DNA of 64,000 nucleotides from an uncultured Piscirickettsiaceae bacterium (GTDB lineage: Bacteria > Pseudomonadota > Gammaproteobacteria > GCF-002020875): contig CAYFMX010000010.1 of assembly GCA_964344325.1 (NCBI GenBank), forward strand, positions 2,332 to 66,331, given 5' to 3'. A model generated the notes under the pieces. The model made no database searches. It was given only the letters and a program-made list of their open reading frames with translations, and was not told the DNA's origin. Below are positions 3,520 through 55,659 of this stretch, piece after piece. Within the stretch, counting starts at the first letter, position 1, and every line of letters begins with the position of its first letter. The position numbers were made by a program, and so were the translations under genes.

Positions 3520-4095
3520 TCACATACCCGTCTTTTGGATTGCACCAAATACCTCTTCCAAACCTGGTTTTCCGTTGAAAATCTCTTCTTGCGTCAATCC
3601 GTCTAGTTCATGCGGAAAAACGAGCCAATCCTCGGTTTCATGTAGATAAAAATCAGGGATCAGATTGTTTTTCGTTCGGTTGTTTTTTGGTTTGAACCAC
3701 GGCGTGGCGATACGGATTTCCTGCGGCAATTTATTGTCCATCCGGTTTTTCAACGCATCCAGAATCGCCTCCAGACTACGCCCAGTATCAAACACATCAT
3801 CAACAATCAGCAACTGATCCGCCGGAACCGAATTGTCGATAATCTGATCCAGCCCAGAAACTTTAATATTGCTCTCTTGTTGCGCAATACCTGTATAGGA
3901 GATTGTCTGGATCGCCATATGCGCCATTTTTACGCCAAGATAATCGAGGATTTCATGCACTGCAATTGCCACTGACGTGCCGCCGCGCCAAACCCCCGCC
4001 AGCATCGTCGGTCGGAAACCACTATTAAAAATATCTGCACCAAGCTGGAATGAATCTAACAGCAAATCGTTGGCGGAGAGGTAGGTTTTATTCAC
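3520..4095 (-). CDS. phosphoribosyltransferase family protein (purine PRTase-like)
   Basis: PRPP-binding motif LLIVDDVFDTGRSLEAI and PRTase type-I fold signature VWRGGTSVA. Start overlaps the stop of the upstream ParE-like toxin (ATGA, 4 bp). Confidence 0.6.
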   Translation of the reverse strand: MNKTYLSANDLLLDSFQLGADIFNSGFRPTMLAGVWRGGTSVAIAVHEILDYLGVKMAHMAIQTISYTGIAQQESNIKVSGLDQIIDNSVPADQLLIVDDVFDTGRSLEAILDALKNRMDNKLPQEIRIATPWFKPKNNRTKNNLIPDFYLHETEDWLVFPHELDGLTQEEIFNGKPGLEEVFGAIQKTGM

Positions 4096-4397
4096 CGTGT
4101 GGTTCCTTTAAGGTAATTCTTCAGTTTCATTGCACCATGAAAGATACCTAAAACTTTAACCGCATCCGGTTGAACCAAATAGGCAATCCGATAATGTTCA
4201 TGCAGCAAAATACGAATTTCTCCTCCTGCTTCATCACCATATTTATAGCCAATTAACGGGAAATCTTCCAAAAGCTGCACTTTTTGATGAACTCCTTCGA
4301 CAATGCGATTTGCAGCATCAGGATTACGTTCAGCAATATAATTATGGATGTCATTTAACCATTCAATTGCTGATTCAGCCCAAATTATCTTTGCCAT
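4092..4397 (-). CDS. type II toxin-antitoxin system RelE/ParE family toxin
   Basis: 101 aa. ParE/RelE-like signature (IRILLHEHYRIAYLVQPDAVKVLGIFHGAMKL). Overlaps the upstream antitoxin gene by 13 bp. Confidence 0.75.
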   Translation of the reverse strand: MAKIIWAESAIEWLNDIHNYIAERNPDAANRIVEGVHQKVQLLEDFPLIGYKYGDEAGGEIRILLHEHYRIAYLVQPDAVKVLGIFHGAMKLKNYLKGTTR

Positions 4398-4570
4398 TCT
4401 CGAATTCTGAGCAGTACTTCTTCATGGGGAACTGTTCTACCGTTTTCCACATCTTCCAGCCCTCGCGCGATCATCTGCCCAAATGCTAGTTCTCTCAGAA
4501 TTTCCTCATAGGAGGCATCTTCCGGCTGTGCCTGAATTGTGGCACTCATCTGTTCTTTAATAGCAGACAT
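4385..4570 (-). CDS. putative addiction-module antitoxin (small acidic antidote protein)
   Basis: 61 aa, acidic, immediately upstream of and overlapping the ParE-like toxin. A paralogous pair occurs at 63265-63779. Confidence 0.6.
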   Translation of the reverse strand: MSAIKEQMSATIQAQPEDASYEEILRELAFGQMIARGLEDVENGRTVPHEEVLLRIREWQR

Positions 4571-6751: not shown

Positions 6752-7585
6752 TTATTTGAATGAAAAATGCGATTTGCATTCCACCTGAAACCATTGCGGC
6801 TCTGGCAAATCAATCCGCAACGCTGTCAATTTTCCACCCCAAAGACAGCCAGTATCCAGCGCAAACACATTATTCTCTTCGCGGGAACTGAGTGTTGACC
6901 AATGTCCGAATACGATCCGCTCTTGCGCAGTTTTGCGTCCCGGAGTACGGAACCAAGGAACCAGTCCCTCCTCCTGCGTGCCAATATCGCCCTTGGGCTG
7001 CATATCAAATTTCCCCTCCGGCGTGCAAAAACGCAACCGCGTCAGACAGTTCGTGATATAGCGCAACCGTTTGATACCCGCCAACGATTTTTTCCACCGC
7101 TTCGGCTTGTTGCCATACATATCAGTGAGAAAAAATTCATACTCATCGCTACGTAATACCTCTTCCACCTCGGCAGCACGTTTTTTCGCCCCCTTGAGCG
7201 ACCACTGCGGCGGCACACCGGCGTGGATCATCGTAAATTGCAACTCTTCATCGTGATGGAGTAACGGACGCTGACGCAACCAAGCCGTTAACTCCTCATA
7301 ATCCTCTGCTTCCAAAATCGGCTGCAATGTGTCCGCCTTATGGAGATAACGCTCATCCCCGGCATGCATTGCCAACAAATGGAGATCATGGTTGCCGAGC
7401 ACCGCCACTGCTTGGTCGCCGAGCGATTTAACAAAACGAAGCGTTTCCAACGATTGCGGCCCACGGTTGATCAAATCACCCGCAAACCAGAGCACATCTT
7501 CCGCCGGATCGAAGCGAATATGCTCTAACAGACAATGTAGCTCATCCAGACACCCTTGCAGATCGCCAATTGCGTAAACCGCCAT
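6752..7585 (-). CDS. apaH: bis(5'-nucleosyl)-tetraphosphatase (symmetrical)
   Basis: MAVYAIGDLQGCLDEL...GDLINRGPQSLETL...LGNHDLHLL metallophosphatase motifs. 277 aa. Confidence 0.9.
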   Translation of the reverse strand: MAVYAIGDLQGCLDELHCLLEHIRFDPAEDVLWFAGDLINRGPQSLETLRFVKSLGDQAVAVLGNHDLHLLAMHAGDERYLHKADTLQPILEAEDYEELTAWLRQRPLLHHDEELQFTMIHAGVPPQWSLKGAKKRAAEVEEVLRSDEYEFFLTDMYGNKPKRWKKSLAGIKRLRYITNCLTRLRFCTPEGKFDMQPKGDIGTQEEGLVPWFRTPGRKTAQERIVFGHWSTLSSREENNVFALDTGCLWGGKLTALRIDLPEPQWFQVECKSHFSFK

Positions 7586-7721
7586 TTTTTCTTCCTATAA
7601 TGAATTTATGTCTGTTTTATCAAAATTTTCTAGCCACTTTAATGCACCGGATGGTTCAGTAATAAATCCATTCAAGTTTTGAGTCATGTATGCAAAGTTA
7701 ATCATATTAGGAGAGCCGGTT

Positions 7722-7781
7722 ATTAGAGCCTAACGCCGGGGCTCACTGGAGAGCGAGCGAATCCAGTGAAGCCCATTATTA
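7722..7781 (-). repeat. attC-like structured repeat downstream of ORF 7779-8126 (13-bp imperfect inverted repeat followed by GGCGTTAGGC)
   Basis: Minus strand reads GGGCTTCACTGGA-(11 nt)-TCCAGTGAGCCCC-GGC-GTTAGGC. GTTAGGC equals the integron core-site consensus GTTRRRY. Confidence 0.45.
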
Positions 7782-8126
7782 TGTTTTGACATTGTATTTT
7801 GTTGCCAATATTTCAAATTGCCCACAAGCATTAAAATTGAATTTATAATGCTTGTGATTCTCCTCTTTTGTAATAACCTTCTGTTTTAAATGCTCTGACA
7901 GCCATGATGAGTTAAGTATTTCATGGCATTCGTCATATCTTTCGCCTTCCATGAATTGTTCTATAGTTTGCCACTTATAAGCAGCAACTCCTTCAAACAC
8001 TATCGTTACTTCAATTTCTCGCCAATCTGTGAATGATAATGTCAATATATCATCTGACTGCTGTACCTCGGGATAATCTGCATCAGCGGTTGAAAAAGGA
8101 GTGTTTATTATTTTTGCGCTTTCCAT
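7779..8126 (-). CDS. hypothetical protein (cassette-like ORF 3)
   Basis: 115-aa ORF with no recognisable domain. AT-rich relative to flanks. Flanked by attC-like repeats. Confidence 0.45.
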   Translation of the reverse strand: MESAKIINTPFSTADADYPEVQQSDDILTLSFTDWREIEVTIVFEGVAAYKWQTIEQFMEGERYDECHEILNSSWLSEHLKQKVITKEENHKHYKFNFNACGQFEILATKYNVKT

Positions 8127-8232
8127 TTTCTTTCATTAAACATAACGCCACAATCACCGGCAAGCCAAGCAACTCTTGGCGAGTCCCTGCTGGCACTGCC
8201 AGCAACACAGGTGTATTGCTTTGTTAGCTGTA
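8127..8232 (-). repeat. attC-like structured repeat downstream of ORF 8233-8625
   Basis: Minus strand: AGCTAAC immediately after the stop codon, internal palindromes TGCTGGCA-G-TGCCAGCA and GCCAAG-AGTTG-CTTGGC, ending GGCGTTATGT about 20 nt before the next start codon. Confidence 0.4.
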
Positions 8233-8625
8233 TTAGCCATGTATAAAAAATATATCCGTTTCAATACCGTCATCGACCATTGGTACCTCAATAGATAGGA
8301 GGTCATTTAGCAATGAAACGAATTCGTTCTCTGACATAATTCTCTGAGATTTTGCACAGTACATAGCCCTCAGCTCTCCCGTAGAAACCGTGATTTTGTC
8401 GATGCTAAGAATTCCTCTTTCGTTTAATAACTCCGCTAAAGCCATTACATCATCAGACGGGGCATCTGATTCCCGCATCCACCAGACGAAGTCTTGAATT
8501 TCATCTGGGTTCCCAGTTTCATATATCACTCGCCCAGTGATCTTTTCCTCAGATTCCGAGACCCAGTGGATGTCTTCCGCTCCAAGTGCACTTAAAAATT
8601 GTTTTAGAAACTGCTTACGTCTCAT
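8233..8625 (-). CDS. hypothetical protein (cassette-like ORF 2)
   Basis: 130-aa ORF, no recognisable domain. Start lies 20 nt downstream of a GCG/TTAGCT junction. Confidence 0.45.
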   Translation of the reverse strand: MRRKQFLKQFLSALGAEDIHWVSESEEKITGRVIYETGNPDEIQDFVWWMRESDAPSDDVMALAELLNERGILSIDKITVSTGELRAMYCAKSQRIMSENEFVSLLNDLLSIEVPMVDDGIETDIFFIHG

Positions 8626-8639
8626 AGTTCATTCGGACA

Positions 8640-8746
8640 GCTAACGCTCAGGCTCAGGGGCATTACGCAGCGGAGCGAGGCTTGTGGCATTTAGCCACAA
8701 ATGAGCACCGCGGAGTAATGTCCCTTGAAGCCAATTGTTAGCTTGT
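8640..8746 (-). repeat. attC-like site: AGCTAAC ... GTTAGCT 7-bp inverted cores enclosing paired inverted repeats and a central palindrome
   Basis: Minus strand: AGCTAAC-AATTGGCTTCAA-GGGACATTAC-...-TGTGGCTAAATGCCACA-...-GTAATGCCCC-TGAGCCTGAGC-GTTAGCT. This follows the R''-L''...L'-R' architecture of integron attC sites, located directly 3' of ORF 8747-9616. Confidence 0.5.
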
Positions 8747-9616
8747 TTAATCCTCATCAAAAGATTTCAGTATCTTGATGAATTCTTCATTATCTTTAAT
8801 GCCGTTAAACCCAGGATCCACGCTGAATAAATCTTCAACTAGCAGGTCTTTTGATTTCAATACTTTAAGTAAAGAAATAGCCTCATCTTGTTTCCCTACC
8901 TGTGAATACACTCTAGCCAACTGATAACTTAGGTAATGATTGTAGTAACCGTCTTTCGTAATCTGCTTTGTGTCATACAAGAACTGAATTGCACCGTCCA
9001 TATTTCCGCTCGATAAATACAAATTCAACATCGAGTCATTTTGTATAAAGGCCTTTCTTTCTTGCGCAGCGTTATACGAAGAAACATACGTATATAAAAG
9101 AAGAGTTACGGAGGCGATAATACCGATCAAGAATAGTAATTTTATCCAAATAGGTGTTTTTTCAACATATTCGATTTGTTTTCCTACAACATCCTCACCA
9201 ACAACACTGAGTTCCACATCATCTTTTTCTATATTAGACAGTAAACTTGTAATCCTTAAATCAACACCCTGTGTAAAAACTGGAATTCTAATAACCTTTT
9301 CGCAAGTACTACTTCCATCTTCCACTGCATATGCCATTGCATCCACAGAGGTAACTACTTCAAATGACAAGAACTCAGACCTTTCGGGCGCTTTTATTAA
9401 GACCCTAATGTCTTTAGCACTTTTATTTCCATCATTTGCAATTATCCAGCTTTTCCCTAACTGCTGCTGCTTGGAAAGAGCTAAAGACGGCATAGGCTCC
9501 CAATATATCTTTGCCTTACGTGATTGAAGCCGCACGAGATAAAAAGCAAATCCGAACGTAATCAATCCACCTATAAACATAAATAGGACTTCTTTTAATA
9601 TGTTTATGTCAGTCAT
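8747..9616 (-). CDS. hypothetical membrane protein with C-terminal TPR-like region (cassette-like ORF 1)
   Basis: 289 aa. Two predicted TM helices (LFMFIGGLITFGFAFYLV; LLFLIGIIASVTLLLYTYV). C-terminal TPR-like helices (YYNHYLSYQLARVYSQVGKQDEAISLL). Confidence 0.5.
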   Translation of the reverse strand: MTDINILKEVLFMFIGGLITFGFAFYLVRLQSRKAKIYWEPMPSLALSKQQQLGKSWIIANDGNKSAKDIRVLIKAPERSEFLSFEVVTSVDAMAYAVEDGSSTCEKVIRIPVFTQGVDLRITSLLSNIEKDDVELSVVGEDVVGKQIEYVEKTPIWIKLLFLIGIIASVTLLLYTYVSSYNAAQERKAFIQNDSMLNLYLSSGNMDGAIQFLYDTKQITKDGYYNHYLSYQLARVYSQVGKQDEAISLLKVLKSKDLLVEDLFSVDPGFNGIKDNEEFIKILKSFDED

Positions 9617-9811
9617 AACCTATCCCTTCTACAAGCTAACAATCCAATATACGGACTAGCTAGTCCGCTTAATTTTCTTAAGTATACGGACAATATAGTC
9701 CGCATATTCATCTAAATCTAACCCAAAAACGGACAATCCCACTTATTGCGATACAACCAAACTGTCAAAAAGAAAAAATCAAGCACATAGAAAAAACTTT
9801 CAAATGAAGAC
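9617..9811 (-). promoter_or_regulatory. attI-like / promoter region heading the cassette-like array
   Basis: Minus strand has GTTAGCT 23 nt upstream of the ORF1 ATG. Two direct repeats TATACGGAC(N6)TAGTCCGC, one containing the perfect palindrome CGGACTAGCTAGTCCG. Confidence 0.35.
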
Positions 9812-10654
9812 CTAATCGGGTGAGGACAACGCACTTAATGCAGCGAATTCCTGCAACGAAAGCGTCTCTGCACGACGGATTGGATCAATTCCACTCTGTT
9901 CAAACTGCTCCAGCGAGACCAGCTTTTTCAAACTGTTACGTAAGGTTTTTCGTCGTTGCGCAAACGCGGCGGTGACAACTTGTGCAAAATGTGCCTCATC
10001 CGCAATTTCAACCGTTGACGTTTCCCACGGAACCAGCCGCACCACAGCAGAATCGACTTTCGGTGGTGGATAAAACGCGTGCGGCGGCACATCCAGAATT
10101 GACTCTACACGACAAAACCGCTGCACCATCACCGAAAGCCGCCCATACGTGCCACTACCCGGCATTGCCGCAAGGCGGTTCACCACCTCTTTTTGCAGCA
10201 TAAAGTGCATGTCCTGAATGATTGGCAACTGCGGCAGCAACTTGAAAATCAGCGGCGTGGAGATGTTGTAGGGCAAATTGCCAACAATGCGCAACTTTCG
10301 GGGATTCTCTTTCGATATTTCTGGAAGTAAGGTGGAAAAATCAAACTTCAGCACGTCTGCACTGTGAATCGTCAATTTTCCAGATTCACCAGCATCGGCA
10401 CATTTTTGCTCCAGAATTGGAATCAAATCGCGATCCAGCTCAACCGCCTGCATCTGTTTGACGAGCGGCAGCAATTCGCAGGTCAATGCGCCCTGTCCTG
10501 GGCCAATTTCGACGAGCCGATCATTTGGTTGCGGATCAATCGCACCAACAATTGCGCTAATGACCGAGAAATCTTGCAGGAAATTTTGCCCAAACCGTTT
10601 ACGCGGGCGGTGCGATGATTGAGAAGATAAGTTGGAAGAGGAAGGGGAATTCAT
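9812..10654 (-). CDS. rsmA: 16S rRNA (adenine1518-N6/adenine1519-N6)-dimethyltransferase
   Basis: RFGQNFLQD...VEIGPGQGALT SAM-binding motifs. Conserved position downstream of pdxA. Confidence 0.9.
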   Translation of the reverse strand: MNSPSSSNLSSQSSHRPRKRFGQNFLQDFSVISAIVGAIDPQPNDRLVEIGPGQGALTCELLPLVKQMQAVELDRDLIPILEQKCADAGESGKLTIHSADVLKFDFSTLLPEISKENPRKLRIVGNLPYNISTPLIFKLLPQLPIIQDMHFMLQKEVVNRLAAMPGSGTYGRLSVMVQRFCRVESILDVPPHAFYPPPKVDSAVVRLVPWETSTVEIADEAHFAQVVTAAFAQRRKTLRNSLKKLVSLEQFEQSGIDPIRRAETLSLQEFAALSALSSPD

Positions 10655-15353: not shown

Positions 15354-15430
15354 CGGAATGTAGCGCAGTCTGGTAGCGCACCTCGTTCGGGACGAGGGGG
15401 TCGGAGGTTCGAATCCTCTCATTCCGACCA
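15354..15430 (+). tRNA. tRNA-Pro (anticodon CGG)
   Basis: 77-nt cloverleaf: acceptor CGGAATG/CATTCCG, D stem GCGC/GCGC, anticodon stem CCTCG/CGAGG with loop TTCGGGA, T loop TTCGAAT, 3' ACCA encoded. Confidence 0.85.
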
Positions 15431-24240: not shown

Positions 24241-24332
24241 TGGCGGAGGGATAGGGATTCGAACCCTAGATAGGCTACAAACCTATGCCGGTTTTCAAGA
24301 CCGGTGCATTCAACCAGCTCTGCCATCCCTCC
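24241..24332 (-). tRNA. tRNA-Ser (anticodon UGA)
   Basis: 92-nt type II tRNA: acceptor GGAGGGA/TCCCTCC, anticodon stem CCGGT/ACCGG with loop CTTGAAA, long variable arm CATAGGTTTGTAGCCTATC, TTCGAAT T-loop, CCA encoded. Confidence 0.85.
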
Positions 24333-54941: not shown

Positions 54942-55659
54942 GGTATGCCTTATTCGGATCCAGTTTTGCCATAGTTCCTAATACTTGCAGATAAGCAATT
55001 ACAGCTTCCATCTCTGTCTTGCCCCGGATTTTCTCCGCTGCACCCTCAATATCAGAATCACGATAAGGAACCTTCCCGTATCCTGGCATGCCACGCAATA
55101 CACGCATCTTCTCTTCGATAGAATCTGCATCTACCTTCTGTTCAGCCAACCAAGGATAATTCGGCATCACAGACTCAGGAACAACCGAACGCGGCGCAAT
55201 CAAATGACGGCGATGCCATTCATCGGAATATTTCCCGCCGACACGCGCCAGATCAGGTCCCGTACGTTTGGAACCCCACTGGAACGGATGGTCATACATG
55301 GACTCGGAAGCCAAAGAGTAATGCCCATAACGCTCCCGTTCATCACGGAATGGACGAATCATCTGAGAGTGGCAGAGATAGCAGCCTTCACGGATGTAGA
55401 CATCACGTCCTGCCAACTCCAGCGGCGTATAAGGACGGATACCATCTCCTGCTTTCCAGTTCTCCAGCGTATCACTCTCGCCACGCTGCCAAACAATTTC
55501 CGGCGATTTGTTATGTTCCATTGTATCTTTAATGGTAAACAGCGGAACAATTTCAACAAAACCACCAACCGAAAGCGAAAGCATGATCAGAATGAGCATC
55601 GCGATCGCGCTTCGCTCCACCTTGTCCTGTAATTTGGACCCGTAAATTTTATCAGCCAT
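54934..55659 (-). CDS. ccoO: cytochrome c oxidase cbb3-type subunit II (monohaem)
   Basis: CYLCHSQ haem motif. Full-length CcoO similarity. Confidence 0.9.

Follow-up and report, generated by a model that had tools for sequence, protein, structure and literature searches.

The element described here lies in a 64-kb stretch of DNA from an uncultured Piscirickettsiaceae bacterium (contig CAYFMX010000010.1), hereafter the window, in the interval between rsmA and apaH. The genes concerned are arranged on the minus strand in the order surA, pdxA, rsmA, ORF1, ORF2, ORF3, and apaH. An earlier reading made from the letters without database searches (here, the sequence-only reading) had noted three small open reading frames (ORFs) of shared orientation between rsmA and apaH and had proposed that they form an integron-like cassette array without an integrase; the three ORFs are present as described. 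The origin of integrase-less cassette clusters is debated, the alternatives being loss of the integrase gene (intI) and capture of cassettes at noncanonical genomic sites. This locus could be a natural test case, as it combines a clean three-cassette array in a conserved operon with relatives in which a complete integron occupies the same flank and a plasmid that carries the same type of attC recombination site.

Layout of the rsmA-apaH interval

The whole array spans window positions 7728-9640 (minus strand) and comprises three cassettes (995, 499, and 412 nt long), each closed by an attC site. The features of the locus, in coding order, are as follows.

9812..10654, minus strand: rsmA, 16S rRNA dimethyladenosine transferase (Pfam RrnaAD, 235 bits, E = 7.9e-70); upstream flank, co-oriented with the cassettes
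9641..9811, minus strand: AT-rich 171-nt spacer ahead of the first junction; a candidate attI or a secondary site
9634..9640, minus strand: GTTAGCT core, crossover between G9640 and T9639
8645..9639, minus strand: cassette 1, 995 nt
8747..9616, minus strand: ORF1, 289 aa
8639..8744, minus strand: attC1, 106 nt; R'' AGCTAAC, R' GTTAGCT; bulged T and A on the R''-L'' arm
8146..8644, minus strand: cassette 2, 499 nt
8233..8625, minus strand: ORF2, 130 aa
8140..8230, minus strand: attC2, 91 nt; R'' AGCTAAC, R' GTTATGT; spacers of 3 nt, like those of the arr-3 attC; a single bulged A
7734..8145, minus strand: cassette 3, 412 nt
7779..8126, minus strand: ORF3, 115 aa
7728..7785, minus strand: attC3, 58 nt, minimal; R'' ACATAAT overlapping the stop codon, R' GTTAGGC; one bulged T
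7586..7733, minus strand: spacer after the array, up to the apaH start, 148 nt; its sole content is a 30-codon ORF
6752..7585, minus strand: apaH, diadenosine tetraphosphatase (Pfam Metallophos); downstream flank, intact

The rsmA gene is also intact, the C terminus of its product aligning with relatives up to the end, and apaH is 60% identical to that of the nearest relative by RsmA (L007). Each cassette holds one promoterless ORF, all three co-oriented, with the attC straight after the stop codon. The structured repeat that had been described within a few nucleotides of each stop begins 0 to 3 nt from it, and the three repeats are 106, 91, and 58 nt long. Their ends likewise read as described (GAGCG|TTAGCT in attC1, GGCG|TTATGT in attC2, and GGCG|TTAGGC in attC3), and the ATG of each ORF, expected about 20 nt past the junction, lies 20 to 24 nt past G|TT. 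One detail was mistaken: the R'' of the third site had been given as ending in AAC and is in fact ACATAAT. The first junction reads ...GGATTG|TT and continues into TTAGCTTGT; a hypothetical cassette-free site would read ...GGATTG|TTAGGCTCT. The G+C content is 35 to 44% in the interval versus ~50% in the flanks, and we take this foreign composition, together with the rarity of the proteins, as evidence for integrated cassettes.

Three attC sites

We built two covariance models, R1 and R2, from outside sequences only, with the window excluded. R1 represents nine clinical class 1 attC sites from plasmids (those of VIM-4, aac(6')-Ib4, aadA1, cmlA5, arr-3, dfrA1, dfrA27, and two functionally unassigned cassettes); we excluded the aadB, smr, and aadA5 sites as disrupted or unclear, and the IntI1 query sequence was verified against plasmids (100% identical). 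R2 represents 69 environmental attC sites adjoining intI genes. RNAalifold applied to the R1 sites recovers the textbook architecture, in which a spacer separates the R box from an L box that carries a one-base bulge. R1 found 86 sites at 19 to 49 bits in 80 environmental intI loci, nearly all on the side and strand expected of an array, and outside cassette arrays it gave nothing above 16 bits in 1.5 Mb of loci that included the window.

Both strands of the 64 kb (128 kb) were searched with the two models, filters off. With either one, the top three matches in the window are exactly attC1, attC2, and attC3, at full length and on the minus strand, an outcome that bears out the attC assignment of the sequence-only reading. 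R1 scores attC1 (8744..8639) at 25.1 bits (E = 3e-4) and attC3 (7785..7728) at 23.4 bits (E = 9e-4). R2 scores attC1 at 27.3 bits (E = 7e-4), attC2 at 19.7 bits (E = 0.03; second best), and attC3 at 17.5 bits (E = 0.09). The next-best matches in the window reach 9.6 bits with R1 and 12.5 bits with R2. Rfam gave no relevant match, either at gathering thresholds on the window or at E values up to 10 on positions 7400-10000.

All three sites have the geometry of attC, with an R box, spacers of 3 to 6 nt, an L box, and a one-base bulge that falls in the model's extrahelical column of the R''-L'' arm; in attC1, GAC follows the L'' stem. The spacing of attC1 matches that of the aadA1 site, with AAC, 5 nt, the L'' stem with its bulge, and GGG-A-C on one arm and an 8-nt L', 6 nt, and GTT on the other. 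Core sites fit R'' RYYYAAC and R' G|TTRRRY, save for the last base of the attC3 R''. Folded as single-stranded DNA, the bottom strand of attC1 reaches -30.1 kcal/mol (z = -6.1), compared with -26.5 kcal/mol for the top strand.

A further feature is specific to cassettes. The 5' end of each cassette pairs with the R'' of its own attC over 9, 8, and 8 consecutive nt (cassettes 1, 2, and 3, respectively), whereas other combinations pair over 3 to 6 nt, and the flank after the last attC (TTAGGC...) pairs with no R'' beyond the shared core. Complementarity of 8 to 9 nt with the own R'' is characteristic of a circular cassette that has integrated at G|TT. Such pairing spans 400 to 1,000 nt and is unexpected for a terminator or for a dispersed family of repetitive extragenic palindromes (REP) or bacterial interspersed mosaic elements (BIME), in which case the ORFs would be ordinary accessory genes. 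That alternative, which the sequence-only reading had itself set against its proposal, draws on the GC-rich, imperfectly palindromic nature of the repeats and on their location after stop codons; we consider it exceedingly improbable. There are no further copies of the repeats in the 64 kb on either strand, and the pattern GCGTTAGSY has no other occurrence there. No T run stands behind the hairpins, save for a weak match at 8162..8146, and the terminator scan is at chance level. The sites differ from one another in sequence and length yet have the attC geometry in common, and the same cassettes adjoin attC sites in unrelated metagenomes (see below). A fourth, decayed cassette at 7586-7733 was considered and rejected, as the attC models have no match there.

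Absence of an integrase and class of the element

An attC site cluster that lacks an integron integrase (CALIN) is defined by at least two attC sites at most 4 kb apart with no integron integrase within that distance (PMC4889954). Here, the three attC sites lie within 1.02 kb, and no tyrosine recombinase or fragment of one was found in the 64-kb window, which extends 7.5 kb on one side of the array and 54 kb on the other, in agreement with what the sequence-only reading had reported for both sides. A tblastn search with the integrase of a relative described below (L013) had no match in the window. The only tblastn match of IntI1, at 55141-55341 (E = 0.02), was rejected as the FixO cytochrome oxidase subunit, and the best E value from a hidden Markov model of three integron integrases, searched against all six-frame stop-to-stop ORFs of 40 aa or more, was 0.34. 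The layout differs from that of a complete integron, in that no divergent intI is adjacent and rsmA ends 171 nt before the first junction.

We conclude, with a probability of about 0.88, that the rsmA-apaH interval holds three bona fide integron gene cassettes without a neighboring integrase, that is, a CALIN. This class, which the sequence-only reading had named first, is upheld by the attC models, the hairpin with its bulge, the pairing of each cassette with its own R'', the presence of the same cassettes elsewhere, and the absence of an integrase. The very divergent integron that it had offered as a second choice is unsupported, because the window is without a recombinase of any kind.

As for expression, the coding strand from rsmA to ORF1 showed neither a sigma-70-like promoter nor a terminator. 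Since the cassettes lack a promoter and terminator of their own and share the orientation of the surA-pdxA-rsmA operon, they are most likely read through from rsmA; the operon transcript would pass from rsmA through the cassettes into apaH.

The locus is also present in assemblies of four runs of project PRJEB17505, a project of which we found no mention in the literature. Five contigs from three of the runs are comparable across the array and are identical. Logan contig L002 ends in ...GGATTGTT (9638), and L005 and L006 begin at 9666 (runs ERR2281803 and ERR2281800), which suggests a branch of the assembly graph at the first junction; assemblies with larger k run unbroken across the junction and are identical.

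Several observations weigh against the cassette reading. With R1, attC2 (8229..8140) scores 10.3 bits (E = 2.2), which is third best in the window and not significant. The bulged base on the top strand is T or A instead of the usual C, and the R'' of attC3 ends in AAT, its canonical final C replaced by T. The folding proposed with the sequence-only reading gave a divided result: the bulge sits in the extrahelical column and attC1 favors its bottom strand, but the extrahelical base is T or A, and in attC2 and attC3 the bottom strand folds no better than the top strand. The four assemblies represent one population, are identical at the locus, and show no gain or loss of a cassette; as the array is identical within one population, the strain comparison called for with the sequence-only reading is uninformative on cassette turnover. 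Finally, read-through from the rsmA operon, although the most likely mode of expression, is inferred solely from the absence of signals.

Under the CALIN reading, each cassette would once have been a circle recombined by an integron integrase via the folded bottom strand of its attC, as the anatomy suggests, and the target would have been G|TT within the rsmA-apaH spacer. The gene for the integrase would lie elsewhere, either chromosomal or plasmid borne (for example, on a plasmid of the "Candidatus Tenderia" type, which has the same type of attC), or would have been lost.

Cassette cargo and its homologues

The locus adds three uncharacterized cassette proteins, one of which may be of an immunity type. 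The sequence-only reading had seen no recognizable domain in any of them. This does not hold for ORF1, in which a TPR end domain is recognized at the C terminus (NCBIfam NF047558, 32.5 bits) in addition to two hydrophobic helices; among 5.8 billion proteins, it has no homologue besides itself. ORF2 has five homologues, carried on cassettes elsewhere, and an AlphaFold2 model of high confidence (predicted local distance difference test [pLDDT] score of 90.9) with no significant match in the PDB. ORF3 has 18 homologues and an all-beta model (pLDDT, 94.5) that weakly resembles an uncharacterized Neisseria protein (5v77_A, E = 1e-3) and the immunity protein PIM7 (8owu_E, TM score of 0.44). Neighbors of ORF3 homologues include Imm42 (L188) and SUKH-3 (L090), and ORF3 is possibly an immunity-type protein. 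PADLOC gave no match for ORF1, ORF2, or ORF3, and none of the three matched a known antibiotic resistance or defense family in the libraries searched.

Homologues of ORF2 and ORF3, mostly on short contigs, show that cassettes 2 (L181, L182, and L189) and 3 (L188) have the same boundaries elsewhere with different neighbors, which points to their mobility. The cassette 2 homologue in L181 and L182 has an ORF that is 52% identical, a start reading G|TTAGCTGT, and an R'' of CAGCTAAC in a 30-bit attC; another ORF2 homologue sits inside an array in L189. The cassette 3 homologue in L188 (83% amino acid identity) starts with G|TTATGTTTAAT and is placed behind a 45.8-bit attC and an Imm42 cassette. 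Its R'' (positions 973-979) is ACATAAC, and therefore the ACATAAT of the window (7778-7784) is probably a decayed copy. Two further ORF3 homologues (L087 and L090) have no obvious attC behind them and gave no match in a default-filter R1 search; the ORF3 family is thus not exclusively cassette borne. Cassette 1 itself is without a homologue; L013 and CP013100.1 have attC sites of the same type as its own. The phage collection held no match to the rsmA-apaH interval, and the 80 metagenome intI loci held no cassette protein of the window and no match to its spacer.

Spacer before the first junction

The sequence-only reading had further described an attI-like layout ahead of the array. The GTTAGCT core and the direct repeats are real:

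9648-9681 and 9683-9716, no strand assigned: two 34-nt direct repeats, 76% identical

Each repeat holds the palindrome CGGAC-N6-GTCCG (9652-9667 and 9687-9702), which occurs nowhere else in the 64 kb. The repeats fold jointly into a nested hairpin of ~65 nt, the end of which is 6 nt short of G|TT (single-stranded free energy, -14.9 kcal/mol; z = -4.8). This architecture is like that of the verified attI of "Candidatus Tenderia electrophaga," where a 30-nt hairpin ends 5 nt before G|TT; the proximal arm reads GTCTCG... there and GTCCGT... in the window. The spacer has no significant similarity to a verified attI, and its local alignments to the attI sites of L012 and L013 and to the DNA before the L181 junction are no better than those of shuffled sequences. 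With a like layout but no significant similarity, the attI reading is plausible but only partly supported. The attC models R1 and R2 have no match in 9641-9811, and the idea that the spacer hairpin is a truncated attC was rejected, as it has no R'' and no model match. At 81 nt upstream of the junction is a second core, GTTAGAT (9715-9740, minus strand); it follows a GTCCGT-N5-GG motif that resembles the junction's own. The sequence CGGACAATA-AGTC may resemble Tn7 ends.

A marine array offers a parallel. In L181 (300-420) and L182 (190-310), two direct GTCTCTATATT repeats and one inverted copy stand just before the first G|TTAGCT, and no intI was found in the 400 nt upstream in L181, where a co-oriented host ORF ends; a further array that lacks an integrase and has an attI-like site may be present in L181/L182. 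Paired repeats of the GTCTCTATATT type, sought in 4.1 Mb on both strands, occur only in the same two loci that yielded the pattern.

One possibility is that 9641-9811 is a working "orphan" attI, a capture platform without its own integrase. The integrase would then be borrowed in trans, for example, from a Tenderia-type plasmid integron, and the rsmA operon's promoter would replace Pc. We count the breaks of the Logan graph at G|TT, the array start in L181/L182, and the hairpin layout of the Tenderia attI as fitting this idea, which we nevertheless regard as unlikely.

Integrons at the same place in relatives

We found 517 relatives by RsmA and compared the gene order behind rsmA in 80 of them. 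About 50 of the 80 have rsmA followed by apaG-apaH or by apaH. The nearest RsmA among GTDB species representatives (L007) is 68% identical. Two relatives (L012 and L013; metagenome-assembled genomes CAZKZP010000009 and JBFMHP010000001, respectively), whose RsmA is 59 to 61% identical to that of the window and ranks 6th and 7th of the 517, carry a complete integron directly 3' of rsmA (L013, 10783-12917; L012, 10801-13626). Its first sign in L013 was an unexpected R1 match 2 kb past rsmA. In both, rsmA is followed by a convergent intI (TIGR02249, 483 to 500 bits), a LexA-like box, and attI, in that order, and then by cassettes in the orientation of rsmA; both contigs stop inside the cassette array.

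The integrases are 459 aa long (L013, 10808-12187; L012, 11108-12487; both minus strand). They consist of a normal core (residues 145-459) and an N-terminal extension of ~140 aa that holds a second SAM-like domain, a long form that recurs in about a dozen metagenome loci (L101-L112).

The attC1 site and the first attC of L013 are both 106 nt long and align without gaps at 71/113 identical positions. Their centers are 71% identical, versus a median of 45% over the 69 environmental sites, and compensatory changes are seen at two pairs of the terminal hairpin; the proteins that the two cassettes encode are unrelated. A plasmid search with the whole interval gave one match, an attC that is 90% identical to attC1 over 81 nt. 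It belongs to a complete integron carried by a mobilizable plasmid from the Chromatiales member "Candidatus Tenderia electrophaga" (CP013100.1, 76596-94676; L191), the integrase of which (332 aa; TIGR02249, 398.6 bits) lies next to attI. This attC is cut by an insertion sequence.

Relic or capture

Two accounts of the array's origin were weighed. In the first, it is the relic of a sedentary chromosomal integron 3' of rsmA from which intI was cleanly deleted, leaving attI and a short array that the rsmA operon now transcribes. In the second, an integrase acting in trans, chromosomal or plasmid encoded, captured the cassettes at a secondary G|TT of the attG type, where they were kept by virtue of operon read-through; the position shared with L012 and L013 would then be a coincidence or reflect a general hotspot. 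We lean slightly toward the relic, which we would place just short of an even chance; capture is a serious possibility, itself below even and only slightly less probable.

Position speaks most directly to the relic. The integron of L012 and L013 lies at the same flank with the same cassette orientation, and rsmA is found near intI in none of the 80 other environmental intI loci, so the linkage of rsmA to the integron is specific. For capture, a chance landing at the flank and in the orientation of two relatives' integron is improbable, the rough expectation being well under 1% for 80 loci. Arrays are known to persist at the ancestral integron locus in Xanthomonas (bioRxiv 10.1101/2025.06.18.660453). 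However, the closest relative, L007, lacks an attC and has uspA in the rsmA-apaH interval, and L008-L011 are likewise without an array. The PdxA proteins of L012 and L013 are 56 to 58% identical to that of the window, no closer than those of many other orders, and shared ancestry would therefore need many losses. The interval from rsmA to apaG or apaH, moreover, varies in L007, L037, L046, L059, and L086, which favors capture.

The spacer can be read either way. Its 171 nt are about as long as the distance from intI to the crossover in class 1 integrons (~150 nt) and in L013 (138 nt), and its direct repeats and hairpin, ending so near G|TT, suit an attI and would be unexpected at an attG. Yet it has no significant similarity to the attI of L012 or L013, and no intI fragment, LexA box, or Pc-like promoter is left of the supposed integron. 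Remnants of intI are in any case rare near small CALINs (PMC4889954), which fits capture. The junction G|TT trivially fits insertion at 5'-GWT-3', a route by which insertion into genomes is efficient and cassettes are expressed near host promoters (bioRxiv 10.1101/2022.09.11.507474), and the G+C content of the spacer (~31 to 33%) resembles that of other intergenic DNA of the window; the left flank is at the same time unusually structured.

The attC sites are similarly divided. That attC1 is of the same type as the first attC of L013, with unrelated cargo, is consistent with the relic. The three sites are, however, unlike one another, as in mobile integrons; in large sedentary arrays, by contrast, attC sites tend to be similar (PMC4889954). 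The plasmid integron with its attC1-like site shows that a mobile source of integrase and cassettes exists, which favors capture.

Other features of the window

A gene for a ParE-family toxin and its 61-aa partner, probably a toxin-antitoxin pair, lie between two phosphoribosyltransferase genes at ~4092-4570 (minus strand). Two tRNA genes, at 15354-15427 (plus strand) and 24244-24332 (minus strand), are the sole Rfam matches in the window.

Comparison with known systems

CALINs are already known as a kind of element, and the locus leaves the known mechanism of integrons unchanged. Like the CALINs of Cury et al. (2016; PMC4889954) and of IntegronFinder 2.0, the array is small and chromosomal and has at least two attC sites within 4 kb and no intI or intI pseudogene. 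Unlike them, it sits inside a conserved housekeeping operon, co-oriented and without terminators; it is preceded by a spacer with repeats and a hairpin, perhaps an attI, and the same flank holds a complete integron in relatives.

With attG insertions and single attC sites lacking an integrase (SALINs), as described by Loot et al. (bioRxiv 10.1101/2022.09.11.507474), the array shares a position outside an integron platform, a G|TT joint, and a host promoter within reach. It differs in holding three cassettes rather than one and in having a structured and repeated left flank, which is reportedly not seen at attG.

Among sedentary chromosomal integrons, such as that of Xanthomonas downstream of ilvD and those of L012 and L013 downstream of rsmA, the last two share with the array their neighbor, their orientation, and, in L013, the type of attC1. 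The array departs from this group in lacking intI, a LexA box, and a Pc-like promoter and in having three cassettes with dissimilar attC sites.

The "Candidatus Tenderia electrophaga" plasmid integron (CP013100.1) has in common with the array an attC that is 90% identical over 81 nt and a hairpin placed 5 nt (plasmid) versus 6 nt (window) before G|TT. In contrast to the array, it has a 332-aa integrase by its attI, its cargo is unrelated, and its matching attC is interrupted by an insertion sequence.

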